64,000 nucleotides of DNA, from IMG/VR virus record IMGVR_UViG_3300022936_000008. One strand, given 5' to 3'. The notes under the pieces were generated by a model that was not told where the DNA came from, did no database searches, and saw nothing but the letters and a program-made list of their open reading frames with translations. Positions 2-59,749 of the stretch are shown here, piece after piece. Both the position numbers and the translations under genes were made by a program. This DNA comes from an uncultured virus (IMG/VR IMGVR_UViG_3300022936_000008). Lineage: Duplodnaviria > Heunggongvirae > Uroviricota > Caudoviricetes. Positions within the stretch are counted from its first letter, which is position 1; every line of letters begins with the position of its first letter.

Positions 2-2104
2 GATTGCTGTGTCTGAAGTACGTCCTAATCCTTGTGAGTATCCGTTGTCTCCTACTTCTACAAGATAGGCTACATATTGAGTTCTATTTTCCAAAACTGA
101 CTCTTCTCCAAGAAGTGCTTTTGCTACATTGTTACCTCTGTGGCGTTGTGTTCCATCGAAATATGTACGTGACATATCTTCTTGAAATTTAAGCTGTGCA
201 CCCAAGTGATCTCTGTCTTGTTTGCGGTCTAAAACTTTCACTGCAAAAATGTCTGAGTAAACAGGTTCAAAAGACCAGTTTGGTTCTTCTACATACCCAC
301 CCGCAACTTTGATTTCGACAGATGTTTCATAGAATGGCATCTCATCATAAAGGTACTCTTCCGGTGATAAAATAAATGGTTTACCTGTTAAACGGATTCC
401 CATTAAAGCGTCTGGGTCTGAACCTGCTTCAACTTTTTGCCAAGGGATAAAATCAAAATCTGCCGGAGCTTCTGAAGTAAAACCTTCTACGAACATTGGA
501 GAACACTCATCACATACAATGTTAGTGATAACAGTTGTATTGTAAACTCTTTGACATCCACCTGCTGATGCTGCAAAATCTGCTGCTGCCACTGTTCCAG
601 ATAAGTTTCCTGATACATTAGCCACTGAAATATTTGGCAAATCCTCTGCATCAGATACAGTGAGTACTCCTGTATTTGCAGTAACTGTTGCTCCTGTTGC
701 TGTTGTGATGGCTGCTCCGTGTGCAGTTACAAAGTTGGCTGCTGTAGTTGTAAGATTTGTCGCGAAAGTTGCGAGATAATTTACTCCACCAATGTTAATA
801 TTTGCAGTTCCTGAAGTGCCTGTTAAAGTTACAGCCTGTGTTCCTGCTCCTGCTGGATTACCTTCTTCAATTACTAAATTAGGATAGGCTGCCTGTAATT
901 CTGCCAAACGGCTTCCATCACAATTATCGTCTTTCAATTGAATTGAGTATCTTTCAGATGATGCATAACAAACTTCTCCTGCAACCCACGCAACTGTTGT
1001 AGTTGTAGCGTTAGCACAAAGGGCTGTTACATCTCCAAGAAGTGTAATTTTAGCTGTTGTTTTTACTCCGGCGGTTGTTACATATGTGGTGATTTCAGCA
1101 TCTGTAAGTTCATTATCCAAAACAATTGAATAAGTGCCTACGCCATTTTTCTGACCTGTTTTTCTAACTGAACCTGCAACAAAACCCGGAAGGTCATCGA
1201 CAGTTGTTGTTAAATCTACTCCATCATCCTCAATCTGTACTGAATAAACTACCCCTGCCGGAATTTCTGTATATCCTGCCGCGCAATCCTCACATCCTTT
1301 AATTTGCGCAGCTAATGATTGAACATATGCTGGTAAAGTTACCGACTGTGGGTGTAAGATTGTATATTCAGAGGAAACACCTGTTCGGTCAGTTTGTTCC
1401 ACTTTATACGCAGGGTACTGAGCTTGAATGTTACCTTGTTCGTTAGAACCTCCTAAATCATTTAATGTCAAGGTTGAGAATACATATGGTACACCTGTAA
1501 GTGCTAAGGTGGTATCGTCAACAATTGAAACATTAATTACTTCTGATAGTGGAATCCCTTCTGGAAGTTTTTCGTCTTTAAGACGTTCTACAACTCTGCG
1601 GATTACTTGTTGGTCTGTTTCGCCTACTTCTTTTCCAAAATGAATTTTAAATCTGTACTCGGTGTCACCTGTCAAGAAACCAATTTGATCTCCTTTGAGG
1701 ATAACATCTAAAACTGTTGAAATCCCTTCTTCAAAAGTAAGAGCCGTATCTTCGTTGATACCGTCATACCCTACAATGATGTCATCAAAACGCTGTACGG
1801 TTGTTTTGGGAGCTGTTACGCTTACATTTCGTACGTCTTTGAGTTTAAATGGGTGCGATGCGTAAGGTTTAGAGTTTTGAGCTGTTCTTGTAGATGCCAC
1901 TGGTGTTTTACCAACGCGCAACTCGTAAGTTGTTTTGTCAGAAAGTCCGGCGAAACTGCCTACAATTTGCGCTCCATTTGCTGTGGCTTTGGTCTTGTTT
2001 ACAATTGCAAACTGCCCTTTACCTAAATTATTACTTCCGCCTGATGTTGCTGTATTTCCGTTAAGGGTGAATAAGTGGCGGGAAAAAGGTCTGTGAATAC
2101 TCAT
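2..2104 (-). CDS. Virion structural protein (crAss-like auxiliary capsid/structural protein), >700 aa, runs off the window start
   Basis: Absent from the ORF track because it has no stop inside the window. Hand translation from ATG 2104 gives MSIHRPFSRHLFTLNGNTATSGG..., open to the edge. Thr/Ala/Gly-rich with CxxC motifs; lies downstream of the MCP in the capsid operon. Confidence 0.75.
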   Translation of the reverse strand, partial: MSIHRPFSRHLFTLNGNTATSGGSNNLGKGQFAIVNKTKATANGAQIVGSFAGLSDKTTYELRVGKTPVASTRTAQNSKPYASHPFKLKDVRNVSVTAPKTTVQRFDDIIVGYDGINEDTALTFEEGISTVLDVILKGDQIGFLTGDTEYRFKIHFGKEVGETDQQVIRRVVERLKDEKLPEGIPLSEVINVSIVDDTTLALTGVPYVFSTLTLNDLGGSNEQGNIQAQYPAYKVEQTDRTGVSSEYTILHPQSVTLPAYVQSLAAQIKGCEDCAAGYTEIPAGVVYSVQIEDDGVDLTTTVDDLPGFVAGSVRKTGQKNGVGTYSIVLDNELTDAEITTYVTTAGVKTTAKITLLGDVTALCANATTTTVAWVAGEVCYASSERYSIQLKDDNCDGSRLAELQAAYPNLVIEEGNPAGAGTQAVTLTGTSGTANINIGGVNYLATFATNLTTTAANFVTAHGAAITTATGATVTANTGVLTVSDAEDLPNISVANVSGNLSGTVAAADFAASAGGCQRVYNTTVITNIVCDECSPMFVEGFTSEAPADFDFIPWQKVEAGSDPDALMGIRLTGKPFILSPEEYLYDEMPFYETSVEIKVAGGYVEEPNWSFEPVYSDIFAVKVLDRKQDRDHLGAQLKFQEDMSRTYFDGTQRHRGNNVAKALLGEESVLENRTQYVAYLVEVGDNGYSQGLGRTSDTAI

Positions 2105-2114
2105 TTTCTTTTAT

Positions 2115-2780
2115 TTATTGTTTATTAATTACTTGTTGTTTTTGTATTTGAAATGCTGGGTTTTGTTCCGAAACTAAAAAATTAGCAGTCATCAAGGAGA
2201 TGATTCTATCCAAGGCTTTGTCATCCCATTCAATAATTGAAGTTTCATTGAATTTGCTTTCAGGATCTGATGGATTTACTTGAGAAATCCTTTTTGGATA
2301 GCGGTAATAAGAGAGGAGAGCTTTTTCTATTAAGAAATCATCATAGTAGATGCTTATTGTGTCACTATTAATTGTGTAACAACTTTCTCTCCATTTAAAA
2401 GAAGGTTTGTTAAAAGGGTCTTGCAATATCTCATTTTTATTTTCATCCTTTATTTCAAAAAGATAAATTTTATCTGAGCATTCTCCCTTTTTTGCAATTG
2501 CTTGGGCATTACTTAAATCTAAATAGTCCAGCGGCAATTTAAAAGAATACCTGTCTGGGTATTTAGTGGAAGAAGAAAGGTTTTTGTTCAACACCAAAAA
2601 GTTCTGGATGTACCTGATATCATCTTCCCCTCTTCTATCCAATAAATTTTCTAAGAACTTGTTTTGAGCTTCGTTAAACAAAAATACAAATCTTTGTTTG
2701 TCAGTTGAGAGTGCATCATTGGTAGCATTCTTTTCAACCTTAGCTATGTATCTTTGATAAGTTTCTGCTATTGTAGCCAT
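2115..2780 (-). CDS. Putative head-tail connector/ring protein
   Basis: 221 aa; FLFNEAQ...LPLDYL...YYRYP pattern and position resemble crAss-like ring proteins. Confidence 0.55.
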   Translation of the reverse strand: MATIAETYQRYIAKVEKNATNDALSTDKQRFVFLFNEAQNKFLENLLDRRGEDDIRYIQNFLVLNKNLSSSTKYPDRYSFKLPLDYLDLSNAQAIAKKGECSDKIYLFEIKDENKNEILQDPFNKPSFKWRESCYTINSDTISIYYDDFLIEKALLSYYRYPKRISQVNPSDPESKFNETSIIEWDDKALDRIISLMTANFLVSEQNPAFQIQKQQVINKQ

Positions 2781-2783
2781 TTG

Positions 2784-7726: not shown

Positions 7727-10552
7727 TTAATTTTTGTTGATTATCGATGTAAATTTTTGGGTTTCGAGTGCCTGTTGTTTAAGTGCTAATTCTCTTGACC
7801 TTAGCCCTAGTTCTTGCATCTTAACTTTATTTGACTCAATATCTGATTTTGATTTTCTGTCGATTTCTTGCTGTCTTAAATCTACATCTGATATTTGCTT
7901 ATTCTGTGCTAAGAGATTCGTAACCTCAGTTTTGTAAATTGCAAGCTCATCTGGAGTTGCATTTGAGTCTACAGCAGAACCTAAGTGCGCTATGTAGGTT
8001 TGTCTTTCTTTAGAAGTATTTGTGAGGATTAGGTTTTCTCTCTCGAATTGTCTTTCTTCTAATAGCTGTTGATTTGTAGATTCTATTTGTTTGTTTAATT
8101 GGTCATCTTGAAATTGTCTTGCCTCTTGCTGTTCTTGTTGAAATCTTTTTCTGTTATCTGCGGCGGCTTGTTTAATTTCTATTAAAGTAGGGTTGGTTAA
8201 AATTTCTATTGAAGACTGAAGATCCCTCTGTATTGTATTGTCATTTAACATTAAGTTTCTAATTTGCTCAATCGACTTTCTATCTCTGGCACTCAAAACA
8301 GAAACTACACCCATATGGCGTAGTGGAAAGAGTTCACCGTCTTCTGCCATAATATCTAATAAATAATGTGCACCATCATCTTTTCTAAACATTACAGACG
8401 CATCTTTTCCATTTGATTGACAGTATTGTGCTATAGCTATGTGGATGTCTTTTTCCTTAGCCTTAGCTGTATTCATCTTTTCAAATAAAGGTGTTATGAG
8501 AGCGTATGAAGCATTTTGTCCTTGCTTTACACCCTCTGATGTGGTGTAGGTGTTTGGTTGGCCTAAAAGTTGTGGAGTGATTCCAATTTGAGAGAGTGCT
8601 TGCTCTTTGTATTGCATTGCCATCTGCCATCTGTACTGTACTTGAGATGCGTATGTAATGTCCTGTCTTTGGAAAGAGTTTGTTAATGCTTGGTTTCCCT
8701 CGGTGTTTTGCTTAGACATATCAACGGCAAATAATCCTGTTGATTTAATCATATCTCGCATATCGTAAATGGCGTCTTCGGTTGTGCCGTCTTTATATTC
8801 CGCCGGAAGATACATTAAGTCAAATGTGAAGAATATACCTAACTCTTTCTCAAGAAGCTCTGTAATTTGATTCATACAGATGTTATGCAATACTTGGTAG
8901 GGTTCTAGTTTTTTTGCTATACCTACAGATATAATCCCTGCGACAGGGAGTTTTACATCATATATATTACTTCGACTACCCTTTATTTGATAATCTAATG
9001 GTCTTACATCTAAATATAAATCTTCTTTTAGGGTGTTTCCATTCCCGCGAATTTTTATACCTTTCCAAATTTCAGGAGTGTATGCGTACACTATAGTGTT
9101 TACATACTCATCCATCTTATTATTCTTTAAAGCTATTTGGAATTCCTCTAAAGAGATGTTTCTTATTTTTTTTATTTCATTTTCCGCCAAAAAATCGGCA
9201 AGTAAATCGTCAGTGGTAATTTCTTGTGATAGTACTCCGACACTATTCTCATAAGTGAGTACTCCAACTCTTTTATATGATCTCCAATAAGCTTCCGTAA
9301 CTTGTATTGTGTCACTTCTTACTTCAATGTCATCCCTTAAATATTTTGAAAATATGTTGCTGTCTGTTGTTTGTTGTCCCCCTAATCTTGGAAGCCAGTC
9401 TTCAATCTGCCTTTCCTCGCCGTCTTTATCTAAGAATGTTCTTATACCTAATGGTTCACCAAGAGCATCTTCCATTTGAGTGGCTAAATCGTGTTCATAG
9501 TAGTTGGTAAATGGTACAATGTGTGCTTCTGGGAATGCTCTCTCCATCACAGACAAACTATTTGTCTTGCCGTTTTGCCAGTAGTCGTTCTGATTCCAAT
9601 AGTTTGAAATTGCCTCTTGTTCTTTGGACGAAAGTAAATGTCCAAACGTATTTATAATTGCAGATGGGCTTAGATTGGTTATGCGTCCTACAAACTCTCC
9701 GTCCTGTGGGTATTTTGCATCAACATCCTGACTGAAAAAAGTTTCTTCAGGTTTCCATCTTTCAATTGAATAACTGTCATATCCTACTCGGAAGTGTCTA
9801 AAATATCTGCCCGATAATAAATAATCTATAAACTCTTCTCTGTCTAATTCGTGAAGATGGAATTCTTTATTGTCTTCATCTAAAGTATTTTGTGCCCATT
9901 CAGTAGCTAAAACTTTGAAGTTTTTCTGCATGAACACTTCTATCTCTTCGGGAGTGAGTGCTTTGACCTGTTGGTCTATTTCCTGTTGGTATTGTTGTGC
10001 TTCTTCTTCTGATTGAAAGTCGCTTTTATTTACATCTATACCTCTTTGTAAGAGCAGTCTATTAACTTCGTTGTTAAATGTTTCTGCGGCGTATTTGTGA
10101 AGTAGTTCTGTTTTTTGCCGTATGTATTCATTTGTGAAATACTCATCTAAAGAGTCAATTCTAAATATATCTTCAAATTCGTTATAGATTCCAGACAATG
10201 CATTACAAACAATACCTATGAAATCAAAATGTTTTATATGTGTTGGGATACCTCTGTCTTGTCTTAATCGTCTTACTTGCTTACTGAAAAAACTATTGTT
10301 TCCCTCTAATTCTCCAAAACCTGTACCTAAATATGTAAACTCTCCGTCAACCATTTTTTTATAGTCGCGGAATTTTAGAGAGTCTTGGTTTTGCCTTTCA
10401 CCTATTCTGTGAAGCGCATCCATTGTGGCTTTTTTCCAAGCTTTTGTTTTTTTTGCTGTTGGGATTGCCTGTGGTGGCATTAGCCCGCTTATAGAAAAAT
10501 CAGCACCGTGTATATTGCCATTTAAAGAGGCGTGAGAGTTTGCGTAGTCCAT
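7727..10552 (-). CDS. Portal protein
   Basis: ~940 aa; PPQAIPTAKKTKAWKKATMD N-terminus, IGITPQLLGQ motif and C-terminal coiled coil as in crAss-like portals; follows the terminase. Start taken at ATG 10552. Confidence 0.85.
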   Translation of the reverse strand: MDYANSHASLNGNIHGADFSISGLMPPQAIPTAKKTKAWKKATMDALHRIGERQNQDSLKFRDYKKMVDGEFTYLGTGFGELEGNNSFFSKQVRRLRQDRGIPTHIKHFDFIGIVCNALSGIYNEFEDIFRIDSLDEYFTNEYIRQKTELLHKYAAETFNNEVNRLLLQRGIDVNKSDFQSEEEAQQYQQEIDQQVKALTPEEIEVFMQKNFKVLATEWAQNTLDEDNKEFHLHELDREEFIDYLLSGRYFRHFRVGYDSYSIERWKPEETFFSQDVDAKYPQDGEFVGRITNLSPSAIINTFGHLLSSKEQEAISNYWNQNDYWQNGKTNSLSVMERAFPEAHIVPFTNYYEHDLATQMEDALGEPLGIRTFLDKDGEERQIEDWLPRLGGQQTTDSNIFSKYLRDDIEVRSDTIQVTEAYWRSYKRVGVLTYENSVGVLSQEITTDDLLADFLAENEIKKIRNISLEEFQIALKNNKMDEYVNTIVYAYTPEIWKGIKIRGNGNTLKEDLYLDVRPLDYQIKGSRSNIYDVKLPVAGIISVGIAKKLEPYQVLHNICMNQITELLEKELGIFFTFDLMYLPAEYKDGTTEDAIYDMRDMIKSTGLFAVDMSKQNTEGNQALTNSFQRQDITYASQVQYRWQMAMQYKEQALSQIGITPQLLGQPNTYTTSEGVKQGQNASYALITPLFEKMNTAKAKEKDIHIAIAQYCQSNGKDASVMFRKDDGAHYLLDIMAEDGELFPLRHMGVVSVLSARDRKSIEQIRNLMLNDNTIQRDLQSSIEILTNPTLIEIKQAAADNRKRFQQEQQEARQFQDDQLNKQIESTNQQLLEERQFERENLILTNTSKERQTYIAHLGSAVDSNATPDELAIYKTEVTNLLAQNKQISDVDLRQQEIDRKSKSDIESNKVKMQELGLRSRELALKQQALETQKFTSIINKN

Positions 10553-10611: not shown

Positions 10612-13377
10612 TTATCTGCGGGGGCGATTGTAAAAACTTACATTTCTTTTGTTTTGAGCATAAAAAGTTTTAGGCCTTTCTTTTGACTCTTTGGGTTTTT
10701 CATTTTGTGAGTCTGGTTTTACGTAATTCAGGGGTTTCCATTTATAAGAGCTTCTCATATAGTGTGCGTGAGCAACTGCTCCCATTGCACTCGTAATTCT
10801 ATCCACGTTTAAGTTTTCTGACCATTGAATAATTTCATCTAGCAATCCAATGTCATCTATTAGCTGCACTCCTTTAAGAATTAATAAAGTGCCATCTTCT
10901 TGTTCTATTTCAAAAGTTTCATTACAATAATCAACAAACAAATCGAATAAAAACTTCTTGCTTGTGCTAGGATTCCACCCCGTTTTTCTCCGGCCATTAT
11001 TAGGGATACTAAAACTAGCTGAGAAATCTAAACTAGATGCTAGGTATTTTGTATCAAGGTGTCTTATCTCTAAAAAGTCTTTAATAGCATAGTTAAAGTT
11101 TTCTCCAAAACAAGTGTCTTCTAAATTATAAGCTTCCATTAACATTAGCCACTTCTCATAAACTTCTTTATGCTTATTTGGCCTGAATGAAATAGAAGCT
11201 ACAATTTTATTTGAAAATGGATCCCCTATAACAGAATTTTTTATGATATAAAAACTCGCAAGTGAAGCCGTATCTGAAGATTCAGCGGCATAATCATCAA
11301 ATCCCGCAGAATACATTCCATATTTAGGCTTTTCTTTAGGAATGTCTTCAAAAATTAAGAAAGGTGCATCGATGTTACCTCCTCTGTGTGGAAACGGAGC
11401 AAGTGGTTTGGTAGATACTTCCACCTGAATATTTCCTTGACTATCTCTATAGAGCTCTCTGCGTCTATCCCATTTACCTGTTTCTAGTAAATACTGTTTG
11501 TGTGCCTTAGCCTCTGCCACAGGAAACCTAGTCCCTTTTCCTGACATAAAAATTTGAGATGGTGACAAAGGTGCATAGACAATTTCTTTTTGGTATTTAA
11601 TCTTATCTTTGATTACTTTATCTCTTCTTTCCTCTATTATCTCTACTGATTTTTTCCAGTCAGTTATGTTTATCTTTATCTTTTTTAGTGCGGCGGATTC
11701 TGGTTTACCTAAGTAATCTGCAAGAGTGCTTTCTATTTTAGGCATATCCACTCTACATTGTCCCGGTATAAAAGTTCCAAACGGTTTTAACCTGTCTTCA
11801 TACCAAGTCCATTGATCTTCGGGTACGCCTCTCTCAAGTATATCCCATTGCATTGGAAGTATATCATAGGTTTCAGGATCCCCTAAAACCTTTAGTCCAT
11901 CTGCACTAAGTGCGTCCGTACCCCCTGTACCTGATAACATACCAAAACATCTAATCATTCCATCAGCCCCTTTCATAGCGGGTAAAAGACCCTCTAACGC
12001 CTCTAGGAATTTTTCTTTCATGGCTTCATCAAGTACAACTATGTCAGGGGTAAATCCAGCATAGACCTCCTTGGAGTTCCCATTATCAGTGTTAATTATG
12101 AATAATTTAGATAGTGGAATTGTCTTACCATTTTTTCTTTTTATCCCCATTTCTACCTCTTTATCCCAATCATTTGTCACATTGTAAACTGCGAATGCCG
12201 GATTTTTATGAAGTATGTCTGTTTTAAAATTTTTGGCTAATTGTCCTAAATCTTTTCCACTTGCTCCGGCGCATAAAAGTTCAGCTTTTCCAATTGTTGC
12301 GGCATGTCCTAACATTGAGGCTTCTGCTGTTGTTTTTGCGGCACGCCTTGTTGCAGCCACAAACATAAATAGTATTTGGAGTTTTTCTTGTAATGCCCTG
12401 TTTTCAAATAACATCCAATCTGAGTCCCTTAATGGTGGATTTGTAATTCTATCTTTAGATTGATATTCTTTCTTTACTTCATTCCAAACTTTATGGGGAA
12501 TTGGTGTAACAAAAACATTCATGTGGTAATATGCCCATCCTGAAATATAAACTCCATCTATGTCAATGCCGTTCTCTAATTTTTTAAATTCATCAACATA
12601 AAATTGTAATGTATTTTTATCTTGTTCCCAATAGTGTTTATCTGGATTCCATTCGGGCACTTTATCCATATAGATTAACATCTCATTATTAGGAGGGCTG
12701 TCAAAATCTATTTTCAGTTCTTTTAGGCGGCGATTTATTTCCGGGAATAGTGGTTTATCTCCGCCCGCCAAAACTTTGTGCATACTAAGTGGTGCTTTTA
12801 CTCCATCTCTAAATTCAATACTGTTTGCTGCCTCAGCCTCATCTTTAATATTTAAATTTGAAACGTCATCATTGATTTTAGAAACTCCAGCGAATACGTC
12901 TTTTAAAAATTTAACCTCTTCTCCTCGTATTTCCTGATTTTCAATATCTGAAATGTCTACAGTATTAACATAAAAATCCACACGGTCGGTATGGATTGAT
13001 ATTATTTGCATACATTCTTTTATAAATGTCTTGAATTCTTTAAGATGATGATCTGATTCTGAGCGTTTTACGAAGTACTTGACACGATCAACAATATTAG
13101 ATATTAGTTCATTTTGCAGTTTGAATTCGTCTGATTTATATTTGATGTTGTTTTTTTGTGCGGCGAGTTTTTCCTTTACATATTTTGAAATTTCAGACTT
13201 GATTATCTTCTTATCTGTGTGTTCTTTTTCAATGTATTCAACAAATAAGTTTTCAGATAGGTTTTCATCTATGCTAATTTTACTCCAATCGTTCTGTAAA
13301 ATGTATTTTTTATACTTCTCAAACTGCGGTTTACTTTTCTTGATAAACCCGGTGATGAAGTTTTCAATTTTTGCCAT
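10612..13377 (-). CDS. terL: Terminase large subunit
   Basis: Walker A-like ATRRAAKTT, Walker B IVVLDEA, GTGG coupling motif, nuclease GFDDY and NVDRITS. Confidence 0.9.
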   Translation of the reverse strand: MAKIENFITGFIKKSKPQFEKYKKYILQNDWSKISIDENLSENLFVEYIEKEHTDKKIIKSEISKYVKEKLAAQKNNIKYKSDEFKLQNELISNIVDRVKYFVKRSESDHHLKEFKTFIKECMQIISIHTDRVDFYVNTVDISDIENQEIRGEEVKFLKDVFAGVSKINDDVSNLNIKDEAEAANSIEFRDGVKAPLSMHKVLAGGDKPLFPEINRRLKELKIDFDSPPNNEMLIYMDKVPEWNPDKHYWEQDKNTLQFYVDEFKKLENGIDIDGVYISGWAYYHMNVFVTPIPHKVWNEVKKEYQSKDRITNPPLRDSDWMLFENRALQEKLQILFMFVAATRRAAKTTAEASMLGHAATIGKAELLCAGASGKDLGQLAKNFKTDILHKNPAFAVYNVTNDWDKEVEMGIKRKNGKTIPLSKLFIINTDNGNSKEVYAGFTPDIVVLDEAMKEKFLEALEGLLPAMKGADGMIRCFGMLSGTGGTDALSADGLKVLGDPETYDILPMQWDILERGVPEDQWTWYEDRLKPFGTFIPGQCRVDMPKIESTLADYLGKPESAALKKIKINITDWKKSVEIIEERRDKVIKDKIKYQKEIVYAPLSPSQIFMSGKGTRFPVAEAKAHKQYLLETGKWDRRRELYRDSQGNIQVEVSTKPLAPFPHRGGNIDAPFLIFEDIPKEKPKYGMYSAGFDDYAAESSDTASLASFYIIKNSVIGDPFSNKIVASISFRPNKHKEVYEKWLMLMEAYNLEDTCFGENFNYAIKDFLEIRHLDTKYLASSLDFSASFSIPNNGRRKTGWNPSTSKKFLFDLFVDYCNETFEIEQEDGTLLILKGVQLIDDIGLLDEIIQWSENLNVDRITSAMGAVAHAHYMRSSYKWKPLNYVKPDSQNEKPKESKERPKTFYAQNKRNVSFYNRPRR

Positions 13378-17385: not shown

Positions 17386-17509
17386 GAAATGATCTTGTGA
17401 TTGGCTGTCTTTTTTGAGGCGGCAGTGATATTTAATTTTATCGGAAAATAGTGTATAGTTGTGATTACCTATATAGTGTTGTAATAAAAAGTAAGCCTTT
17501 TTAATAAGA

Positions 17510-40000: not shown

Positions 40001-40452
40001 ATAAAGAAAATAAAGACGTTTCAAAACATTTAAATTTAATTAAAACACAAAACCATGAAAATTAAAGTAACAAACCAAAATATAAAACACGTTGCAGGAC
40101 TATTGAGAAAGGCACTAAGAAACGGCTTTTCAGATAGAATGTATTATCCGGCAAGTAAAAGGCAAAACACAGCATATAAAACCCTTAACCTAAAAAACAG
40201 TGTTATTGAAAAGTCAGGTAAGAGTGTTTTTCATCAAACAGTTGTTGAATCAGATTATATGCATGGTAGACGCTTTATAAGAATTCATAACAATTTAGAT
40301 GTTTATGGAACTGATGATGAATGGAGTAGTCGTTATAGAGCGTTTTTAGTAGATATTGACGATGTTGTCGATTTTTTATCCGGCGAAATTCACATTAGAT
40401 GTACACACCCTACTAGAAAAGAACAAAAAGCCAATCAAATAATAAAATTACT

Positions 40453-40644: not shown

Positions 40645-43600
40645 CTTTTAACTAAAACAAATGGACTACTATAAACTATTATCTGACTACCTCAACGCAA
40701 CAGGTAAGTATGAAAATTATGAAGTATTAACTTTTCAGGATGAAATTACACATATTCACGTGTACTACCAATTTGGTAAAACGAGTAAGAAGGTACAAAA
40801 TGATAAAGAAATTTCTTTGTTTGAATTACTTACATTTGTTTACAGTAAAATAGCTGTCTAACTGTCGGTTTTTAATGCCGGAAATTTATGAAATACAAAA
40901 TATACCAACTAACAGAGCCGAAAGTTTTATCTGAAATTGATACCTCAGATTATTATCCGGCAGAGAAAAAGAAAACGGTTTTAGAAGAACTATCTTCAAT
41001 GCCTTATGATTTTTCAGACGAGCACACAACCGTCGAAGATGCTTATGCTGAGGTTGTAAAATACAAAGAGAAATTCAAACACTTAACACTAACTATCATC
41101 CCTGTTATCAATATTCATTGGGACGGAGAAATTAGCTAAAATAATATGCGGGAACTTATGAAAGACCTATTCGAAAATATTTCAGCATTACCTGCATACG
41201 TTTCAGATATTTTAGCTACCTTTGAGGACGGAGAAAGTGATTATGAAACTTGTAAAGTATTAGTTACACAATTAGAAGCTGTTGGTTACACCTGTGATTG
41301 CGGTTTAGATGGTGTTCCTTTTAATCTTAGGAGATTGTGGTTTTTAACCGCCGGATTTTAAACACTGGCACATTAACAGGCTTTTTGCCGAAACTTAATT
41401 ATTATGAAAATCCTTATATCAGCATCAAGTAAAGAAGCAGCAGAGGTTAGTTTGAACGCTTATTTCTACTCAACTACTTACCGAATTAGAGAAGATGGAG
41501 CTGTCTGTTTTACTCCGGCGGGAAAAGACGAGAAGCAAAACACAAATCTTAAATACAAAGTAGTTAAAAACAGACATAAAATTTACATATTATGAAGTTT
41601 AAAAGAATAACACCACTAAAATACAAAGTTATTGAAAACTTGAAGATCATCTATTTAAATGAATTAGAAGTTAGGCAATTGCAAGTTGATATTAAGAACG
41701 AAGAAATTCCAGCAGGGATAATTATTACTGATGAAAAAGGTAATTTTTGCACAATCAACAAAGATGGGAAGTTTGATAAAGTCCCTTACGGATTTTCTAA
41801 GAGTTATGAATTAAGCAGGCAATTACTCAACTAACAACAATCTAAATAATAGGAATTATGACTACGACTGGAAATATAGTAACTAAAACATTCGGGCAAA
41901 ACACTTTTAATTTTAATGTTGGAGAAATCTTGACAAATAAAGGCAGTAAAAAATTTGTATTCGTAGAGCAAATAACGGAATGGACTTCTGAAGATAACGA
42001 AATATTCGGATTTATAATGCCAAATACGGTTACAAGTTGGAAGTTTTATTTTGATATTCTTACAACTGAATTTGGGGCTATTAATTTGGCGGGGAGAAAA
42101 CTAATTAAAAACTGGAAAAACATACAGTAAGATGATAATAATACTAGCAATAATGGTTTTTATACTATATGTATTTGGAGCTATATTAACCACTCTTTTA
42201 ACAGGGTGGGAATATAAAACAAAAGATTTGTTTAAAATTATGACATGGCCAATAAGCCTGTTTATAGCAAAGAGATAATTAAAATGGGAATAGGATGTTC
42301 GGCAATAATTTTATTTATTGCTTTTATAATAGGTTGTTTAATTTCACATAAAAATAGATCATAAATATGAAATCAGAAGAAGAAAAGTATGCAGAATTGA
42401 TAATATCCATGTCGACAGATTTTTTGATTGGAAAAATAAACTTTGACCTTTATGCGAGTAACTTAAATGTTATTAATAAAAATATTCAAAAAATGAATTA
42501 TGAAGACAATCAAAGAATGGCAGATGACATTTTAGATAAATTTTTAGAATAATTAACAATCAAACCAGGGGCTCGGCTGTAACGCGCAATAAAAATGAAA
42601 ACATTCTCACTCAATCCAATAAACGGTAGGAAATCCTTCGGCTCAAAAATGCATGTAACCGAGGACAAAAACACGGCAAAACTATACAGTTATAACACAC
42701 ACGTAGCAACTTATGATTTGGCCGAGGGAAAAATGACAATCAACGGAAAATATTCCGCAACAACAAACACTCACATCAACGCATTTCTCCATCATTATGG
42801 ATTTGACACTTGCACAGCTAAAGAACTTGAAAAATATATGTTATGATAAAACTAGAAGAAAATTTTGACGGACACATCATTTTATATTGCAAAGGACATT
42901 ACACAGCAAAAGATGTAGATTTTATTTCAGGTTTACAGAGGATTTGGGCAGTTAGATGTGGTTTACAAATTGAACACATCAGTGATAATATAAAAGAATA
43001 CATAGCAGATCATTTACATACAATATTTGTTAAATGTAACCCTAAAAAACAAGAATATTTTTACCAGATTTTAAATAAAGGACTTTGTGACGAATGGAAA
43101 TACGAAGGTTTAAATGCAATTGAAAGGGTTATAATGATTTATTCTAACGAACTTGGGCAATTACAAATCAAGAATCGTACAGCATCAGGGTGGCATACAT
43201 TAATTAAACTACCAAAACCTCAAAAAAGACTGTTTAAAAGGATTGTAAATGGTAAGGGTAACTACAACGACTATAAACTTGTAAGGTAATGAATAGCATT
43301 TTGATTTTTTCGTCCGGCGAATTGGTAGGACAGTTAAATTTCCGCACAAAGAAAACAACAGAAAAAAATTATAAACACATCAAAAAACACGGATTTGTTA
43401 ACGCACAAACAGGAACAGTTTATCCTGATTTAAAAATAGAGAAATTATGAACACAGAAACTTGGCAACTAACAGATGGAAGTCTTTATCAATATGGGAGA
43501 AAAATTTCCGAGGGTCATTATGAGTTCAGAGAATTTGATCGTAACAACTATTTAATCCCCGAAGGTAGGAATGATGATGAATTTATTGACTCTGTATGGG

Positions 43601-44502
43601 ATGATTCTGAATTTTGGGTAGAGCAGACTATCATTATGTCTGACTATACCGAAAAGCAAATTGATAACTATATCAGCGGTTATTATGATAACGTCGATGA
43701 GGTAAAGGGACAATACGATGATGATTGGGAATGCGTTGTCGCAGAATGTATTTTTGAACAAGAAAGTGGTCTTTATTGATTTATAAAACAATATAAGAAA
43801 TGAGACTATTTATTACAAAGCTGTTTTTAATCACATTAGTGGTTACTATTTTTACAACAATGTTGGTAGGGATTGCTTGGCTATTTAATTCTCAACCTGA
43901 AAATTTACACAGAGTTTGGCACTTTTTAGGAAATTGCTGTTTATTAACTTCTGTGTTTTGGATTTTATTCGGCGCGAAAATAACTTTTAAATAAGACTTT
44001 ATGACAACTGAAAATAACTTTGTAAAGATTTTGATAGCTTGTGGTGTAACACTTGAATTGTTAAAAGATTATGAGTGGTATATTCAAGCACTTGCGCCGC
44101 ATAAATACCACTGTACAGGTTTTCATCCGGTTGCTGCAAGAATTGATATTATTAAAGATAATATTGTAATACATTAAATTATGAACATAGAAAGCAGATT
44201 GATTTGGTTATTAGTGGCATATTTGTTTGGGATTTTTGTTGGGTATTTAGCCTTTGATTATTTTCCGGCGAAAAAACAAACAGTACCAGAAGAATATAAG
44301 CTAATTGATAAAACAGACGTTTTAAGAGGCTATTTTGACCGTGACAGTACTTTGGTTATAGAATTTGAGAACGTTGTTGTAAACCCTGAATACACTCTTG
44401 AAATCATTAATATAGACTCTGTGGCTATAAATACTGGAACTGAAGTTTATAAATGTAGGATGGATGAGATTGAAGAGGTTTTATTGAGGGATAATTTGTA
44501 GA

Positions 44503-45772: not shown

Positions 45773-48700
45773 AAAGCGTATTAGTGTACATTTTATGTGT
45801 ATTATTCACCATTTTGCTCTTAGGTGGTATTTTTGCGGCGGTTTTATTTCCCGAAAAACTTCCAGATTGGATGGGATGGATAGTTGGTGTAGAACTATAT
45901 TTTGTATTTATGATAGTTTTAAACAGGCTACAATTTTGGATTTTAAAAGTATTAGGTATTAAACAACACGAATTATGACAATAAAAGTAATTATCAGAGA
46001 ATTTGAAAGAGGTTGGGGAAACAAAATTGATGAAATAAAAGAGTTTGACAACGTAGCTCAAGCTAATGAATTTGTCAAAAATTTCAACAGCAAAAACAAT
46101 TTAACAACTGTGCCTGATTGGTATATGACGGCAGAAATAGCATAAAAATCATGGAAATAACAGTAATAAAAAGAGGCTACAACATAGAACAAGTGTTTTT
46201 TGGAAAGCCATCAAACCAAATGGAAGAGTGGGTTGAACAGTTAAATAATAATCCATTAAATTCAGAACGTTATTCAATTGAAGAAAAATACACTCAAAAA
46301 AGTATTTATGAAATCGTTAACTTCTTAGAAATAGAGTAATGAAAAAACTAACCATACTCGTAGAAATCCGCGACCAACAAAACCAAGTCATAACTGACAG
46401 CGAAGGGAACAAGGTTTCCGACTTCAAATTCAATGAAGAATGGAACGAGATAACAGATGAACTTGCAGAGAGGTCTTTAAAGCGTTACTATAAGCAGTTT
46501 AAGGCAATTTCTCCCGAAAGTAATATCAACATATCACTTTTACAATTAAACACTTACAGTCAAACATATCCTTGCTTGTATTCTTTTTATGGCTCGGAAA
46601 GTAAATTCATAAAACACACTTAAAATGAAAACAATTAATATTAACGGCGAAAATTACACAATTGAAGAATTAACAGCTATCTTGGAAAAAGCGAAACAAT
46701 TATCACCAATGGATGAAGTTTATGCCTATCACAAAACAACTGAAAAAGAATTTGAAGAACTTTATAAAAATGTTTCTCAATTTTCAAAGTTTCAGGAAAG
46801 AGAGAGAATGATTGTAGATTTTTATAATAAGGGTGTTGTTCCGACCTTGAAAGATAAAAAATGGGTTTTATATTTAAATGAAGACAATACACTCGGTGTC
46901 GCCTACTCTGGTTGGACTTCTTACGTTTCCGCGCGCCTCTGCTTTTTAAGAGAAAGTGACGCAAAAAATGCTAAGGAGAGATTTTTAAAAGAGTATAAAG
47001 AAAGTAGATTATAATTATGGAAACAGCAAAATCTTTAGATAAGTCAAAATATTCAGACTCAGAAGTTGATAGAAAATGTGCAAGAAGTTGGAATTCATTT
47101 TACACAGTTATAGATCAACTATTTGAGGGTAAAGAAAAGCCAATCGGCTACAAAATTGAACAAGGAGGTATAACTTATATTTGGGAATAATTATGAACAT
47201 CAAAAAACAAAACCGCGAACAATTCCGTAAAGAAACCTGCTCTCACATAGAGAAAATCGGCGGAGAAAAACAGAACAGCTACGATAAAGACAGCACTCAA
47301 TATATCTTGAAAACACCAACAGGAAATTTACTTCTAACAGTGAGACATGAACCGTCAGAACTTCATTTTATTGCCGGAAATTTTGTAGGCAGCGAAGAAA
47401 AAGCAAAAGCTAAGTTTGGTCATTGGAAGTCGAATTACATCGTTAGTGAAGATAGGATGGATACACAGGATTGTATTTTAGGGTTTAAGAAGCATATTGA
47501 ATACTTAATGAGCTAATATTATGAAAGAATTTGAAAGCTTTGATGGAACAATAGAGAATCAATTCAGAGGAGATAAGTTATTTTTCTCAGATGCGGAGAC
47601 TTATAGTTCAGATTTTAAGTTGTTTGAAGAATTAGGCATGAAAAGATTTAAAACAGCGTACAAAGATCCACTTTACGTAGGTACTGTTGTTACTGAAGAC
47701 TACAAAGTAAAGTTAACAGTTGAATGTTGGCCTGCTCAATTTTGGACTTTTGAAATTTATAATAAAGATGCCGATTTAATGACATACAAAGGAAATACAG
47801 GAAGCGGGGCACTTTCAGATTTTTGGCCAACTATAAAACTTCTGGCAGAGGGTATGATTGATATTAAAATAGTAAATAACATAGAAATATGAAAACAAAT
47901 CAAGTAGCAAGAGGAGTAAGAGTTAAGCTAAATGAAAAATGGGAAGAAAAGTGTTTAGGAGATAAGCATCTTGCAGCAGAACCTGTAATATTTATTTCAG
48001 ATAATCATATTTATAACGATCAAAAGGGAGAGTATGTACATCTTCAAGGTGGAAGCGGGACAATAGGTGGATACGCTTATCTTGACCAATTAGAGTTGGA
48101 ATTTCCTTTACCTGAAGGCTCTCTATACCCATACGATCAATATTCAGGAGATGGATACGGTTGGAAAAAAGGAGCAATTGAATATTTTCTTAAAGAGCGG
48201 GAGAGAATTGAAGATATTATTAGAAATTTGGATGACAAAGCTCTACTTAATCACGAAATTAAAAAAATAGATGAACAGAGTTTATAAAATTACAACAGTT
48301 GTGTTTTTCATGTCATATTTTTTCATAGTTTTGTGGAATAATACAATCAACCCCTTTAACTTTAGCAAAGATTCAATTATCGTTTGGGCTATTGTTACGG
48401 GAGCTGCTTTTTGCGGAACTACTATTGCCAACTATTTAGAAGAAAACAGATGAAAACAAGAACGGAACTAGTAAACCTAATCATAAAAAAGGTAGGTGAA
48501 AGCAAAGACAACTTATTAGTGTTTGCTTGTATGGAGTATGATGATTTGGAATCAATTTATAATACGCTTTATAATGTTGCATAAACCCTGTCCATTTTGC
48601 TGTGTTGCGAATAGCGAGGATGTTGGAGGAGCCTGCTGTTTTTGTGATTATGGAGGAGATATAACAATTGGTAAAGGTGGACATTTTGACACTTTAGAAC

Positions 48701-50321
48701 AGTATAACCGTGTTGCTTTTTCTTCGCCGGAAAATAAAATCCGAGAGATAGAAAAATCAGAAATTAAAAAAGAGTATTTATGAAGACAATTTACATGGCA
48801 CAAACACTACAACTTTTGCTGCCAGAAAAACAAAAACAGCTAATAGCCTCATGAGCAGTTAAAGATTCAGAAGTAGGACAATATCTAATAATTAAAGAAG
48901 ATGAAAACAACGCTTAGAAAATTAGCATCAGAGATAAACTTTGAAGATAAGAAAATACAAAGCTATGTAGATTGGGAAGAATTGGCTAGAATTTTTGATA
49001 TCTCTGATTTAGATTGGAGTGAAGATAAAAGATTACAAGCTTACCACATGAGGACTTGGTACTGTACTGATTCGTATGTAGGGTGGAGAGCTTATTTTTT
49101 AGACGGCGAATTAGTTGCTTTTTCTAGCCAAATGGGGAGAAAATTTGATGAAGATTTTGAATTTATTTCTAAAGAATCTGCTCTAAAAGTTAGAGATTAT
49201 TTACATTCTTTAGTGCAGGAATCAGAGCAATTCGACCGATTTTCAATTGTAACAGGTTTAGATGAAGAAATTGACGATACATACAAAATTGATTTTAACA
49301 GCCAAATTTTACAGTCTAAGGCTTTATTAGACGGCGAAGAAGTAGAAATAATCAAAGAACGATACGATTATAAAGACATGCACTCAGTTAAAATCAAAAA
49401 TTCCGCCGGAAAAGAAAAAACGGTAAATTGTAGAGAATTAGACTTCAAATATAACACTTTAGACTAATGGATAAATTTTTTAAAAAAACAATAGAGAAAA
49501 CATTCAACCGCTGCATAGGACTTCAAAGTGCTTTACAAACCGCCGTGCGTAGCGAAGACAGCCGCCTAAAAGAAGGAGCACTAAGCAGTCTAGCCCATCA
49601 ATCAGGACTTAGAAGATTATTCATTGAAGAACATTTAACAGAAATATTAGCGTTATGACAGAAAATAGAAAAGTACAGGTGGTTATGTTAAATAGTGATA
49701 AAAACCAATTCGAAGGACTAGATGTCCACCAAGCGATAGAAAAAGTAGAAACTTTAAGAAAGATTTCGCCGCAAATAAAAAACAAACCCACTCTAAAATA
49801 CAACCCAACTTCAAAAGAAGTAAAAGAATACGGTGAGACTTTAGAGAAGTACGAACAAGAACTAGAAAGTTACAAAAACAAAAAAGAAACTGTTGACCAA
49901 TACAACAGAGAGCTTTACAACAACCTTGAACAGCATTTAAAGACAGAAGCAGGTTTATATAACATTCCAAAACAATCACAACAAAAAGTTTGGGAACTGG
50001 CTTGGAGAGAGGGACATTCATCAGGGTATAGCAGCGTCTATTATTGGTTGGAAGAATTAATTGAATTATTTTAAAATTATGGACAAAAAAGAACAGTTAA
50101 TAGAAAATCTTTGGAAAGAAAGGCATATGTTGGCCTATAAAGGTCGGGACACATTAGATCACGAATTGGCAATTGAGTATCTTAAAAATAATGATTTACA
50201 AAGTATGAAAGCCAATCTAAATATTTCTGATGAGGAATTTATAGGAGGGTTCGAGCTTTTGTCTGCCGCAGTAAATGATATAGAAACACTATATTTAGAT
50301 TATGATTGCGTTAACGATTGA
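45769..50321 (+). other. Run of short hypothetical ORFs (including 46339-46623, 46625-47014, 47521-47892, 47889-48287, 48901-49467, 49655-50074)
   Basis: ORF track, co-directional and tightly packed. Confidence 0.65.
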
Positions 50322-52991: not shown

Positions 52992-53045
52992 AAAAAAATT
53001 GAAATAAACCAAGCATTTTTAAAATATTAATTGTATATTTGCATT

Positions 53046-54704
53046 ATGAGCGACAAAAAGAAATCAGCAGCACTATTACCAAAAATAATTGCAGCTACAA
53101 CAGATGAAGAGGCTATACAGGTTTTAAATGACACTTTAGAACTGCTTTATCTTGGAGATGACTACCTAGAACTTTTAAAGTTAAAAAACCGTTTAAATGA
53201 GTTGAAATTAGACTTTAAAGAGATTGAAGATAGTTATAGAGCTGTTTCTTTTCCCCGCGAATATTCACAACTTGCCGAAATCAGAGATGAAATTGCTTTT
53301 CTTTACAGGACAACTAATGATGAATTAAGTTATGAAATCAACAGATGTAAACTCAGATGGTCGGACGAGGGAAAAACAGCAGTTAGAGCGCAATCAATTA
53401 TCGACGCTAAATGGAACGAAGAGTTAATAAAAGTAAACAATAACAAAGCTCTGTCTCTATCATCATTAGAAAGTGTTTACGGTATTACAGACGGCTATAA
53501 AGAGTATTTAGCACTAGCAAGTTCAAGTTATGGTTTGTTTCAAGAACTTATAGCGTTTTTTGCATCTATGAATAAGCTGTCTGATTCTGTGGCCTCACAA
53601 GCATCACACGCATTACAAATTTTAAATAGAGACGTGAAATAATGGGAACAATCGAAGAAGAAATAGAGTTTTCAAAAAGGCTTCTTGCTTTTGAAGATGA
53701 TTGGGATGACGATGGAGCATTAGCCTGTAATCCCGAAATATATCACAAATCTATAAAACTACTTAGGAATTATACCAACGGATTAAAGAGTTGTCAACCT
53801 CCTATGATAAATTTATGTAGGGATGGTTCAATAGATTTAGAATGGCAAGGAGAGGGAAATAAAGTTTTAATTGTTAACATTGTTAATCAAGCGGAGTTCG
53901 AGTATTGTTTTTATGGCCGCGAAAAAGACAAAGAAATAAAAGGGACTATAAAAAACTGGGAATTAGATAGTAAACTTAGGAAAATGATAAGAGAATGGAA
54001 GACTTAGTAACAATTGAAACAGGAAAATTAGCTAAGGAAAAAGGGTTTGATGAGCCTTGTGTAGCTTTTTATGATAGTTATAATGGAGCAAATCATTTAT
54101 TTTTAACTACAAGAGTGAAATCAACGTTTTTAGGAAAAATGTTAAACATAATCCCAGAAAGAATATTTGTAAATCATTCTCATTTAGAATATGTTGAAGG
54201 TAATAACACTACATTAGCCCCAACACAAGCCCAACTTCAAAAATGGCTCCGAGATGAACATAAATTAAGGGTGTTTGTTACTCAAGGAATATCGGGAAAC
54301 TTTAATTTTGAAATTTACAAGTGGAATTACGATAACCAAATTGGAAAATGGGAGAGAATTGGAAACATATCTTCAGTCGCAACATATGAAGATGCTTTAG
54401 AAAAAGGATTAATTAATGCGCTTAATCTAATTGAATTATGAAAATACAAAATTTAACAGCGGAACAATGCATCCACATAGCTAAAATTGCCGAGCCAACT
54501 ATTGATTGGAACTTTGTAGAGAATCAGCCAAATAAATGGGACGGTTTTGATTTGCTTGGAGAGAAGCAAGAAGATGGATCTTATGACGGAATATTTCAGA
54601 TTTCTTTTTCCGGCCATTTTTCATTTTTTGATGAGGGTTTGAATGAATATAAAGTTTCCGGGCAAGAAAAACAACAAATTATAAAATACTTAGAAAGTTT
54701 ATGA
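53046..54704 (+). CDS. Hypothetical proteins (53046-53642, 53642-54007, 53995-54441, 54438-54704)
   Basis: ORF track; TATATTTG promoter element at ~53034. Confidence 0.6.
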
Positions 54705-54876
54705 CACACAAAGAAGAAATGAAATGGCTCAAGGAGAACGACCCTATCACCTATTCGGAATTAACTTCTGACCCTACAGGAGTTGGCGATAGTGATGATA
54801 TAGGATGTAGTATGTTCTTTTTTATTATAGCTGTTGTTTTTGCTGCCGGATTTTTAATATATAAATAATAATAACC

Positions 54877-57533: not shown

Positions 57534-58421
57534 ATGTTCGCAGAAAATCAAGAAGTAGAAGTTATTAAAGTTGATAAATTGCCGGGTAAAGAGTATGCAC
57601 CTAAATTAGTATTAGGGGATAAAAAACAAGTTAAGGCTATTTGTACAGACAGTAAAGGAAATCAACATTTAGATGTGGGACTACGTACAGAGTTAAACTA
57701 TGTAACTTCTCACGAAACAGGGGAAGAGTTACCTAAGAATTTAAAAGTAGAGAATGGTATTCAAACAATAACTCATTGGTGTCACCCATCAAGATTTAAA
57801 GCTTTATGAAACGATATAGTATAATTGAACAAGATGATGTTTATTACATCTTAAAAGAACGTGGTTTTTCTTTATTTGGCTGTTTCTTTTCCATTTCCGG
57901 CGAATTAATCCCAGACTACACAACCAAGTGGTCACAAATTCCATTCTACAATTTAATTGACGCTGAGAATCGATTGGAAGAATTTATTAACCCCAAACCA
58001 ATAGAATTATTATGAAAATAATGGTAGACAGGCCAATAGAAGATTATATAAGAGAAGTATCTGCTCAAAACTTTCTCTTAAAAGAAGAGCTTGAAAAGGC
58101 TTATGAGATTATCGAAGAAAAAGATAAAATTATAAAGGAATACGAAACATTAATAATTGTAGAATGATTACACTCACAGAAAAATATTCAATAGAAACAG
58201 ACGGAGCAGGATGCACTTTATTATTTCAGGAATCGCGGGAAAGAAAAAAGAAAGACTCAGAAGATAAAGAGCAATATACTTTTAAAGACGAATGGTATTT
58301 TTTAAGTGTCCCTCAAGCACTTAACAAATTTACAGACATATCCTTAGAAGAATGTTCAGACGTAAAAGAAATGATGGTGAAATTAGACGAAGTTAAAGCA
58401 ATCATTAACCGATTAAAATAA
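57534..58421 (+). CDS. Hypothetical proteins (57534-57809, 57806-58015, 58164-58421)
   Basis: ORF track; first start moved out of the tRNA. Confidence 0.6.
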
Positions 58422-58422
58422 G

Positions 58423-58463: not shown

Positions 58464-58467
58464 CACT

Positions 58468-58576
58468 CAGGTAATACATTTACAGAAACGCTGCCCGAGG
58501 TAGTGAGAATGGAAGCACTTTTAAGTAAGACTGTTCATTCAGAAATTTGCCCTCTAACTTTTTAGGGGGCTTTTTT
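58468..58576 (+). ncRNA. Candidate ~110-nt small RNA
   Basis: Bounded by a promoter and a terminator; internal hairpins. Confidence 0.5.
58549..58576 (+). terminator. Intrinsic terminator
   Basis: GCCCTCTAA-CTTT-TTAGGGGGC followed by T6. Confidence 0.8.
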
Positions 58577-58616
58577 ACGCTTACACTTTGCCTTGCGGTG
58601 AAATTAAATTAAAAAT

Positions 58617-59749
58617 ATGAAAAAATTATATAAGAAATTCAAAGGGTTTAAAGTGCTATGTGGAGAGTATGGCGGTGTGGTTTGTGGTTATTGTGAAAAT
58701 CATTTTTTAGTTGCCACTTTAGATAGACCTGCCTGCTCTTTCCGCCGGACAAAACCCGACACATTCATTGAAGAAGAGTACGTAGACAGCCAATACCGTT
58801 ACTTCTACGCAGATGAAAGTATGTTAGAGAAACAAACTAAATCAGGACGAAAAAGGTGACTTATAAAGAAATATCGCAGAAGTATGATATCCCCGAAAGA
58901 AACTTACTCGCCAGGGTTTACCGACTTTGTTTGTACGGAAAAGGCAAACCAAAACAGTTTACTCAGGAGCAGGTTAGTCAGATTATAGCTTGTCAGCCTT
59001 ATGGTGTGGATTATAAAAATGATCGCCGGAAAATAAAACTCATAGAACTATATCAAGCAACAGGCAATGTAAAAAAAGCGACAAGAGAACTGAAAATGCA
59101 CGAACGTATTGCCTATGAAGCTGTAAAGGAATATAAGGAGACAGAAATGATAACTATTGAGTCTTCTATGAATAAGGGGTTAAAACTTTGCAGAGAAGAT
59201 GTGGGGTGGGTTTTATATGATGAAGATGGTGAGCCATTTGCATCGACTGAGCAGGGATTTGACTTTTTCCTTTCGCCGGAAAATATTAAAAGACAGCTAA
59301 AAAATTTCAAGAAAAAGTACAGCTATCACGTAAAATTATGTGAAGATTTAAACGGTCAAATCTCTGTAAAACATAAAACCTTAAAAATAAGTGCTGTAAG
59401 AGACGAAAGTTAAAAGAATTTATTGTATATTTGTATCGGCAATAAAGCCAAAACGTAAAACCAATTTAAAATGAAAAGACAATCTTTATTAGAAGCAGGG
59501 TTAACAGAAAACCAAAACACAGAAGCAGTAGTAAAAACTACATTAGCTAAAGATTTAAAAGCAATTAAAAAGTTAAAAAGGGACGTAGAAGACCGTCTTG
59601 AAGAAGCGGAGGAAGCACTTGAAGATAGACTTTCAACTAACACTCCAATTGACAAGTCTGTTGTAGAAGTATTATTTAGTAAAGTTAAAGACCTTAAAGC
59701 AGAGCAAGTTCTTTACAAAGAGTTTGAAACTGAATTTCTTGGAGAATAA
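58617..59749 (+). CDS. Hypothetical proteins (58617-58859; HTH-like 58856-59413; coiled-coil 59471-59749)
   Basis: ORF track. Confidence 0.6.

Follow-up and report, generated by a model that had tools for sequence, protein, structure and literature searches.

Competent bacteria, along with a few chromosome-organizing systems, provide known examples of short DNA words overprinted on genes; in phages such words are hardly described. The uptake sequences of competent bacteria, i.e. the uptake signal sequences (USS) of Pasteurellaceae and the DNA uptake sequences (DUS) of Neisseriaceae, are read by the uptake machinery; the available part of one account describes a short word every kb or few kb, on both strands and mostly within genes, overprinted at poorly conserved positions and with dialects between related lineages (PMC2817400). 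Noc, in turn, nucleates at 16-bp sites scattered round the chromosome, as the available part of a second source states (PMC8429893). We have analyzed a stretch of 64,000 nucleotides (the window) from an uncultured virus, IMG/VR record IMGVR_UViG_3300022936_000008, for a dispersed motif composed of a T, a CpG-rich core, an A-tract and, in about 19 copies, a tail ACAGC(T). No prior description of it was found in a limited search of the literature. The motif is real and is under pressure at the level of DNA. The explanation that we favor, tentatively and with a probability of roughly 0.4, is that its copies are dispersed putative docking sites on duplex DNA, where a lineage-specific factor would read both core and tail.

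The sharpest form of the core, TCGSSGGA (S being G or C), occurs at 23 sites in the 64 kb, 13 on the plus and 10 on the minus strand. Full bipartite copies, collected by a pattern scan for core, A-rich spacer and ACAGC, number 19 (8 plus, 11 minus). An earlier interpretation made from the letters and translations (the sequence-only reading) had listed 18 tail-bearing sites. Core, A-rich spacer and ACAGC are present at every one of them, and the independent scan recovered all 18 and added another at 40147. The bipartite layout thus stands, and the spacer, given earlier as about 8–16 nt, is corrected to 6–16 nt from the core end. Each of the 12 sites listed as core only has a core with an A tract (a T tract at 13817), and the quoted peptide tails (RNSGAEK, RREKKQQL, ISPEQKTT and GIAEKETEI) are correct on translation. 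Flanks are weak at the copies in the large terminase gene TerL (12326), in a structural gene (1053) and at 17404.

Listing all G/C runs and all ACAGC independently recovers the same motif family. On the plus strand, the word CGCCGGA is found 11 times and its complement 12, compared with about 0.4 expected under a first-order model, and the leading direct families of a repeat finder (D1, D3 and D6–D11) and its inverted pairs I2, I3, I7, I10, I11 and I23 are this motif. The core is asymmetric, with TCG..GGA found 23 times and the palindrome-type TCG..CGA and TCC..GGA found 4 times (counted on both strands) and not at all, respectively, a pattern better suited to a single oriented reader than to a symmetric dimer; no palindromic S6 is present among the 40 commonest flanked hexamers. 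Many sites have the form T-tract/core/A-tract and can hence be read in both directions.

All of the nulls used for enrichment preserve every protein sequence and keep intergenic copies fixed. They comprised a synonymous shuffle (200 runs) and a dicodon-Markov model (300 runs) in which each codon is drawn given its amino acid and the preceding codon; the latter is conservative because it was trained on these same genes. CpG-rich runs (at least 5 S with at least 2 CpG) number 110, compared with 54.6±5.6 (maximum 70) in the synonymous shuffle and 72.5±8.0 (maximum 96) in the dicodon model. For runs flanked by T...A the observed count is 64, against 19.8±3.4 and 31.8±5.0, respectively. A core with 7 of 9 A downstream is found 48 times over both strands (24 + 24), where the synonymous shuffle gives 6.0±1.7 and 7.1±1.3 per strand and the dicodon model 13.1±2.2. 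A core followed by ACAGC is found 17 times on both strands together (synonymous 1.6±0.7 on the plus and 2.9±0.8 on the minus strand; dicodon 5.1±1.4, maximum 9), and the 23 occurrences of TCGSSGGA compare with 5.6±2.1 (maximum 12) in the dicodon model. A codon-order shuffle gave figures resembling those of the synonymous shuffle. Among control words, the reversed TCGSSGGA has 4 sites and six neighboring words have 0–5. The tail is linked to the core by distance: ACAGC lies 10–14 nt past a G/C run 8 times on the plus and 8 times on the minus strand, 16 in all, where about 3.8 are expected from the other 51 offsets of the same tabulation (15 plus-strand and 24 minus-strand occurrences).

The sequence-only reading had claimed a DNA-level signal that is no by-product of coding, and had staked this beforehand on an excess over dicodon-preserving sequences and on a link of the GC core to a downstream ACAGC. 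Both are borne out, with 8-mer, A-tract and linked tail all exceeding the dicodon null. The interpretation is supported in part, the roles that it proposed (genome organization, packaging, ejection, protection or intrinsic bends) being putative. The signal occurs in all frames and on both strands and is overprinted on conserved protein positions. The 100 cores within open reading frames (ORFs) start at codon positions 1, 2 and 3 in 24, 38 and 38 cases, and the 79 readings of core plus A-tract divide into 47 sense, 23 antisense and 9 intergenic.

In the conserved genes that were checked, the motif is overprinted onto existing codons through rare-codon choice and is not inserted; every CpG cluster in this genome is also a rare-codon cluster. 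In the exonuclease gene, the window has TTT ACG CCG GAA (F T P E) where Cellulophaga phage phi4:1 has TTT ACT GCT GAT at the same aligned codons and IMG/VR relatives have TTT/TTC CCT AAA GAA (L006, L008) or TTA GAT ATT AAA (L005), and the motif copy swaps codons one for one. In GroEL, a core with A-tract (27951..27958, plus strand) encodes KIAGEKKP. Sense copies tend to encode helix-start-like peptides (S-P/A/G-E-x-K, I-A-G-E-K), and antisense copies F/L/A-rich stretches. An inserted mobile mini-element, similar to miniature inverted-repeat transposable elements (MITE) or repetitive extragenic palindromes (REP), was rejected since the exonuclease copy adds no bases, a check limited to conserved genes.

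One pair of copies exceeds what the motif itself predicts. The segments 23179-23211 and 32962-32994 are inverted twins, 97% identical over 33 nt (repeat finder I3), in unrelated ORFs. They contain the full copies 23185..23207 (minus strand, antisense in ORF 23072-23419) and 32966..32988 (plus strand, sense, near the end of ORF 32728-33039). Thirty-five of 36 alignment columns match, where the maximum under the motif model is 29.2±1.2, and 35 was reached in 0 of 3000 simulations. Copying or conversion therefore accounts for at least some of the copies, a process that selection for binding does not require. Among the alternatives to docking sites, the one that survives best, although we consider it unlikely, extends such copying to the motif as a whole: a DNA-handling step (recombination start, gene conversion or a small mobile unit) would favor motif-bearing DNA, and the motif would spread into tolerant positions with no job for each copy. 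Copies do lie at tolerant places, namely ORF ends, small uncharacterized ORFs and helix-start-like peptides, and are less dense in structural genes, and the phage encodes a RecA/UvsX-like recombinase. Uptake sequences are similar, being 65% within ORFs and at poorly conserved genes and positions in the part of the account available (PMC2817400). Nevertheless, the remaining 119 of the 120 copy pairs fall within the motif model, the checked copies in conserved genes are overprints and not insertions, and no flanking target duplication is evident by eye at the twin copies. Such spread would still need a reader and thus overlaps with the docking-site explanation.

The window has a G+C content of 33.5%. 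Genes up to about 17 kb are on the minus strand and encode structural proteins, the portal and the large terminase; from 17.1 kb on, genes are on the plus strand and encode a helicase, the RecA/UvsX-like protein, GroEL, a Dam-type methylase, a 3'-5' exonuclease and about 100 small uncharacterized ORFs. All but two of the 23 TCGSSGGA sites are beyond 23 kb, outside the structural module. The spacing of the 64 flanked cores is near-random (coefficient of variation 0.89), by which regular spacing was rejected, and the cores have no polarity along the window.

Somewhat less probable than spread by copying is a transcription signal, which might be a promoter with two boxes, used by a phage-directed RNA polymerase, or, in the GCTGTT-T-rich orientation, a sequence-specific pause or stop signal. 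Cores are about twice as dense 19–30 nt before start codons as elsewhere, three reversed copies lie 26–27 nt before an ATG, and several forward ones lie 1–23 nt before one. The ACAGC of the plus-strand copy 37778..37803 is 1 nt ahead of the ATG of 37805, the intergenic plus-strand copy 38631..38655 ends 5 nt ahead of the ATG of 38661, and the plus-strand core with A-tract 37443..37450 is 13 nt ahead of the ATG of 37463. On the minus strand, the intergenic copy 39573..39591 has its core 26 nt ahead of the other-strand ATG of 39617, and the copy 54830..54850 (repeat finder I2) is just upstream of gene 54877, where an overlapping 55-aa ORF is doubtful. Moreover, host-type TTTG...TAnnTTTG promoters are few (8 in all, 5 plus and 3 minus), and the two boxes in the 143-kb relative G001 (see below), with their 14–16 nt spacer, resemble a -35/-10 layout. 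The reversed tail, (A/T)GCTGTT followed by T's, is reminiscent of the T7 class II stop signal. However, where all genes are on the plus strand, full copies run 8 forward and 9 reverse, most of them inside ORFs, by which a gene-oriented two-box promoter was rejected. Only 3 of 16 forward full copies (window phage and G001) are within 12 nt of an ORF start, and neither a phage RNA polymerase nor a sigma factor was seen among the genes of the window. A gene-start signal as the main role was also rejected, the core density at -30 to -19 being about 2-fold and few of the 124 regions upstream of an ATG holding a core.

Several more specific signals were considered. Likenesses to the IHF consensus and to sigma-54, extracytoplasmic function (ECF) sigma factor and MotA-box sites were weighed by eye and dropped. 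An intrinsic hairpin terminator was rejected since there is no stem, the mean minimum free energy (MFE) being -4.56 compared with -3.23 (sd 2.2) for shuffles. In scans of 30-42 kb, terminator matches numbered 6 (shuffle mean 6.5), none of them on a full copy, and sigma-70 counts equaled those of shuffles.

We would give rather low odds to the idea that the copies are targets of an enzyme that nicks or cuts site-specifically, or of one that acts in priming or replication, analogous to the fixed nicks of T5-type virion DNA. Such a role would suit an asymmetric, GC-rich motif in AT-rich DNA that occurs on both strands about once per 3 kb, and the window encodes an HNH endonuclease (23420-23812), which adjoins the antisense twin copy, and a homing-type endonuclease (5624-6526), which lies between structural genes. 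The T5 nicks are on one strand only, however, whereas the motif is on both, and a bipartite site of 25–30 nt is long for a primase.

The terminases of Cellulophaga phages phi4:1 and phi17:2 (Lightbulbvirus) share 39.5–39.7% identity with that of the window, and gene order is identical. The uncultured phage is related to these two, and its DNA probably came from a leaf-litter metagenome. The only public sequencing run found with window DNA is of that type, and no RNA run containing it was listed. Compared with the window, the assembly contigs of this run gave only the phage contig, at a depth of about 13 and with breaks at repeats, plus a low-depth variant at 35383-35590; the contig layout is uninformative on the motif. 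Phage phi4:1 has no TCGSSGGA site, only 0.2 CpG clusters per 10 kb and no match to a seed hidden Markov model (HMM) of the motif at E<1. A TerL search for relatives found one locus, at 59%, and in it (L001) the seed HMM has one weak match (E 0.6). A pattern scan of viral contigs with ATCGSSGGAGMAAAAAC yielded 32 loci with one match apiece and no clustered copies, and these were set aside as chance matches. In the leaf-litter sample itself, another contig (3949 nt, depth 24) has 38 nt in common with 39261-39298 (3 differences), a stretch that includes the leader of gene 39287 as well as a reversed core; the element may also be present in a second phage of this sample.

A dialect of the motif is present in G001, a distant relative with a complete 143-kb IMG/VR record, whose exonuclease is 62% identical to that of the window. 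Over the 71 kb of G001 that were compared, to which its enrichment figures also apply, 13 of the 142 window proteins were matched at 1e-5. The small proteins in common with G001 are encoded at 15726-16037, 17107-17385, 24889-25299, 46625-47014, 50418-50837, 53995-54441 and 58164-58421. In the dialect, a T is followed by CGCG(G) or a related core, which may be palindromic, and then by an A-tract and ACAGT(T); the spacer measures 14–16 nt in 7 of 14 copies. CpG clusters number 77 compared with 45.1±4.5, flanked ones 46 compared with 23.3±2.6, and cores with A-tract 51 compared with 18.9±2.1. All 11 TCGSSGGA sites of G001 are at 5.7-26 kb and 115-139 kb with none between, in the non-structural part of the record. 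From one phage to the other, core and tail change jointly. Across deep divergence the phages have this kind of word in common, but not its individual positions.

CpG handling varies greatly among related phages (rho 0.34, strongly depleted, in phi4:1 (L002-L004), 0.80 in the window and 0.72 in L001), and this variation is one ground for an explanation without function, in which CpG would become clustered between T and A through a context-dependent mutation or repair bias, or through a higher-order bias in codon context. The core is also loosely defined, and the dicodon model already accounts for 72.5 of the 110 clusters. We nevertheless hold this explanation improbable. The 8-mer, A-tract and linked tail are all above the dicodon null, intergenic copies have the same long consensus, and a local repair bias does not produce a word that is asymmetric, lies on both strands and has a second box at a distance. 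Least probable is an RNA-level signal in the messenger (a rare-codon pause, processing site or translation start aid), for which the sense to antisense ratio of 47:23, the forward copies just before start codons in A-rich leaders and the rare codons of each CpG cluster could be cited, but a third of the copies are antisense, full copies are 8:9, no fold is conserved by the MFE comparison above and Rfam finds only tRNA-Met.

Host genomes were surveyed as the sequence-only reading had proposed, and the motif does not occur at comparable density in the 306 Bacteroidota genomes sampled, which were collected via a 16S probe and comprise 5 named genera and 301 genomes across the phylum. Flavobacterium, Chryseobacterium, Pedobacter, Mucilaginibacter and Sphingobacterium have 9–52 TCGSSGGAAA per genome, not above the reversed control. 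Among the 301 genomes the top count is 172 in 3.2 Mb (control 11), compared with 9 in the 64-kb window, and the five richest genomes have the bipartite form 5–20 times, with GC-rich spacers. The motif is about 3 to 100 times denser in the phage than in any sampled Bacteroidota genome.

In the docking-site explanation, a single factor that binds DNA sequence-specifically, through contacts with both core and tail, would work on the duplex genome whatever the direction of the genes. The factor would probably be phage-encoded, and its role might be global regulation, genome organization or marking of the phage's own DNA; that a protein reads the motif, that it is of phage origin and what it does are what we infer from the pattern. 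The motif would be kept in the early/replication half by selection or possibly by a copying bias. Should such a reader exist, it would constitute a new phage DNA-protein recognition system in the poorly studied large Bacteroidota phages, and its sites would provide a sequence signature for spotting members of the lineage and for separating early from structural regions. The motif stands out for its two co-varying boxes with lineage dialects.

Several results weigh against this explanation. The core is degenerate, with several S6 words, and the spacer varies from 6 to 16 nt, both loose for a rigid protein site. The tail excess in G001 is not significant (13 compared with 10.5±1.2), and the twin pair points to copying. 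With regard to conservation of single sites, no close relatives were found by megablast of the window against phages, nor by searches for GroEL in viral contigs or for GroEL and RecA in metagenome contigs. Among the candidate readers named by the sequence-only reading, the HU/IHF-like candidate (16000-16347) has no Pfam match at E≤0.001, the ParB-like one (29418-29774) none at E≤5, and the helix-turn-helix (HTH) one (58856-59413) only a sub-threshold match to HTH_28 (20.9 bits compared with a cut-off of 25). Finally, a host reader or a host-borne word may be involved, although the survey of 306 Bacteroidota genomes weakens the case for a host-borne word.

Some leads on the candidate readers come from Atlas. 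For 16000-16347 an HU/IHF-like fold is suggested (TM 0.60), with PF00216 in 33% of the nearest cluster, and the nearest clusters of 29418-29774 include one automatically named 'ParB family' that has no common Pfam family. The latter protein also contains a DGRHR stretch, a feature typical of the ParB/sulfiredoxin fold. In the 71 kb of G001, which has the motif dialect, BLAST gave no match at 1e-5 for either protein, and no protein is tied to the motif by the Pfam, Atlas or DGRHR leads.

A more specific proposal, which we regard as doubtful, is that the motif is a self-tag of the phage lineage, i.e. a bipartite mark with lineage dialects through the early/replication half, by which a phage factor would tell phage from host DNA by sequence and not by base modification. 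Such a factor might be a nuclease controller, a starter of recombination or replication, or a silencer.

The remaining full copies are as follows. On the minus strand, 1053..1075 has weak flanks and is sense in the structural gene 1-2104 (nhmmer E 3.7e-5), 12326..12343 is weak and sense in TerL, and 17404..17424 is weak and intergenic. Four other minus-strand copies are antisense in ORFs: 21261..21282 in 21126-21521, 41500..41523 in 41404-41595, 53241..53260 in 53031-53642 and 57879..57903 in 57806-58015. On the plus strand, 36025..36050 is sense in ORF 35974-36198, 36539..36561 is at the end of ORF 36201-36566 (repeat finder I2), 40147..40173 is weak (core CCGGC), 47257..47279 is sense in ORF 47181-47516, and 59273..59297 is sense in ORF 58856-59413. 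Minus-strand TCGSSGGA cores occur alone at 1946..1953 and, in the portal gene, at 9043..9050, and another is antisense in GroEL (28148..28155). Those at 29212..29219 and 33488..33495, also on the minus strand, have their A-tract on the plus reading, and those at 40379..40386 and 43313..43320 have an A-tract and are antisense. A T-tract/core/A-tract arrangement is found at 44264..44271 (minus strand, readable both ways) and, on the plus strand, at 48724..48731 and 60871..60878. Other plus-strand cores with an A-tract are at 37583..37590, 58233..58240 and 59023..59030, and a plus-strand core alone is at 63431..63438.

The last full copy, 34165..34187 on the minus strand, is within a stretch of about 950 nt (33880-34830) that has no convincing ORF and contains GC-rich inverted repeats. 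Three to four more TTTCTTTGCGSGG-type cores lie there in the same direction (about 34484, 34590 and 34660), along with a host-type TTTG...TATCTTTG promoter at 34263-34297. Possible roles for the stretch are an origin or a locus for a non-coding RNA; an Rfam search of it gave no match.

Other features of the window were observed in passing. A AAATTGGTAAAAT-type segment occupies the gaps before the portal gene and its downstream gene (7662-7703 and 10587-10609), recurs inverted at 58393-58435 and overlaps a host-type promoter match at 10590-10559; an upstream element of a late promoter is one possibility. A 100-nt direct repeat (74%) at 40520-40619 and 51363-51462, at which contigs of the source assembly break, lies within the small ORFs 40453-40644 and 51296-51493, which are probably paralogues. 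The N-terminal domain of a 334-aa protein (23867-24871) is that of a dATP/dGTP diphosphohydrolase (PF18909, 2.3e-16). In some phages such enzymes go with non-standard nucleotide pathways; no partner genes were seen in the window. An unusual phage cargo at 62323-64000, truncated by the end of the window, is a reprolysin-like M12B metallopeptidase with a fibronectin type III domain; a peptide-pattern scan of genome contigs for its relatives, aimed at finding the host, found none.

Among known systems, Chi resembles the motif in being an asymmetric, G-rich, over-represented octamer, and a moving enzyme reads it on DNA. Chi belongs to the host, whose genome is enriched in it, and its orientation follows that of replication. 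Unlike Chi, the motif has no polarity in the window, no host enrichment among the sampled genomes, and an added A-tract and tail. Sites of the ParB family (Noc-binding sites (NBS), KorB operators and parS) are similar in that many scattered copies, genic and intergenic, act on duplex DNA regardless of gene direction, and the NBS has the shape T-tract/GC core/A-tract, as in the motif. They are, however, palindromes bound by dimers, and a palindromic site of the parS, NBS or KorB type was rejected on the counts given above (23 compared with 4 and 0); the ParB-like ORF, moreover, is the one without a Pfam match. A tripartite middle promoter in a different Cellulophaga phage is reported in the available part of the phi14:2 preprint. 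Like uptake sequences, the motif has a high density on both strands and in all reading frames, beyond coding needs. It differs from them in its second box and in its carrier, a lytic-type phage and not a competent bacterium with the word genome-wide, the 306 Bacteroidota genomes having at most 172 TCGSSGGAAA per 3.2 Mb. Although the defining features of each family fail where tested, the genomic behavior of the motif appears closest to that of uptake sequences and of scattered Noc/KorB sites, as these are described in the available parts of the two sources (PMC2817400; PMC8429893).

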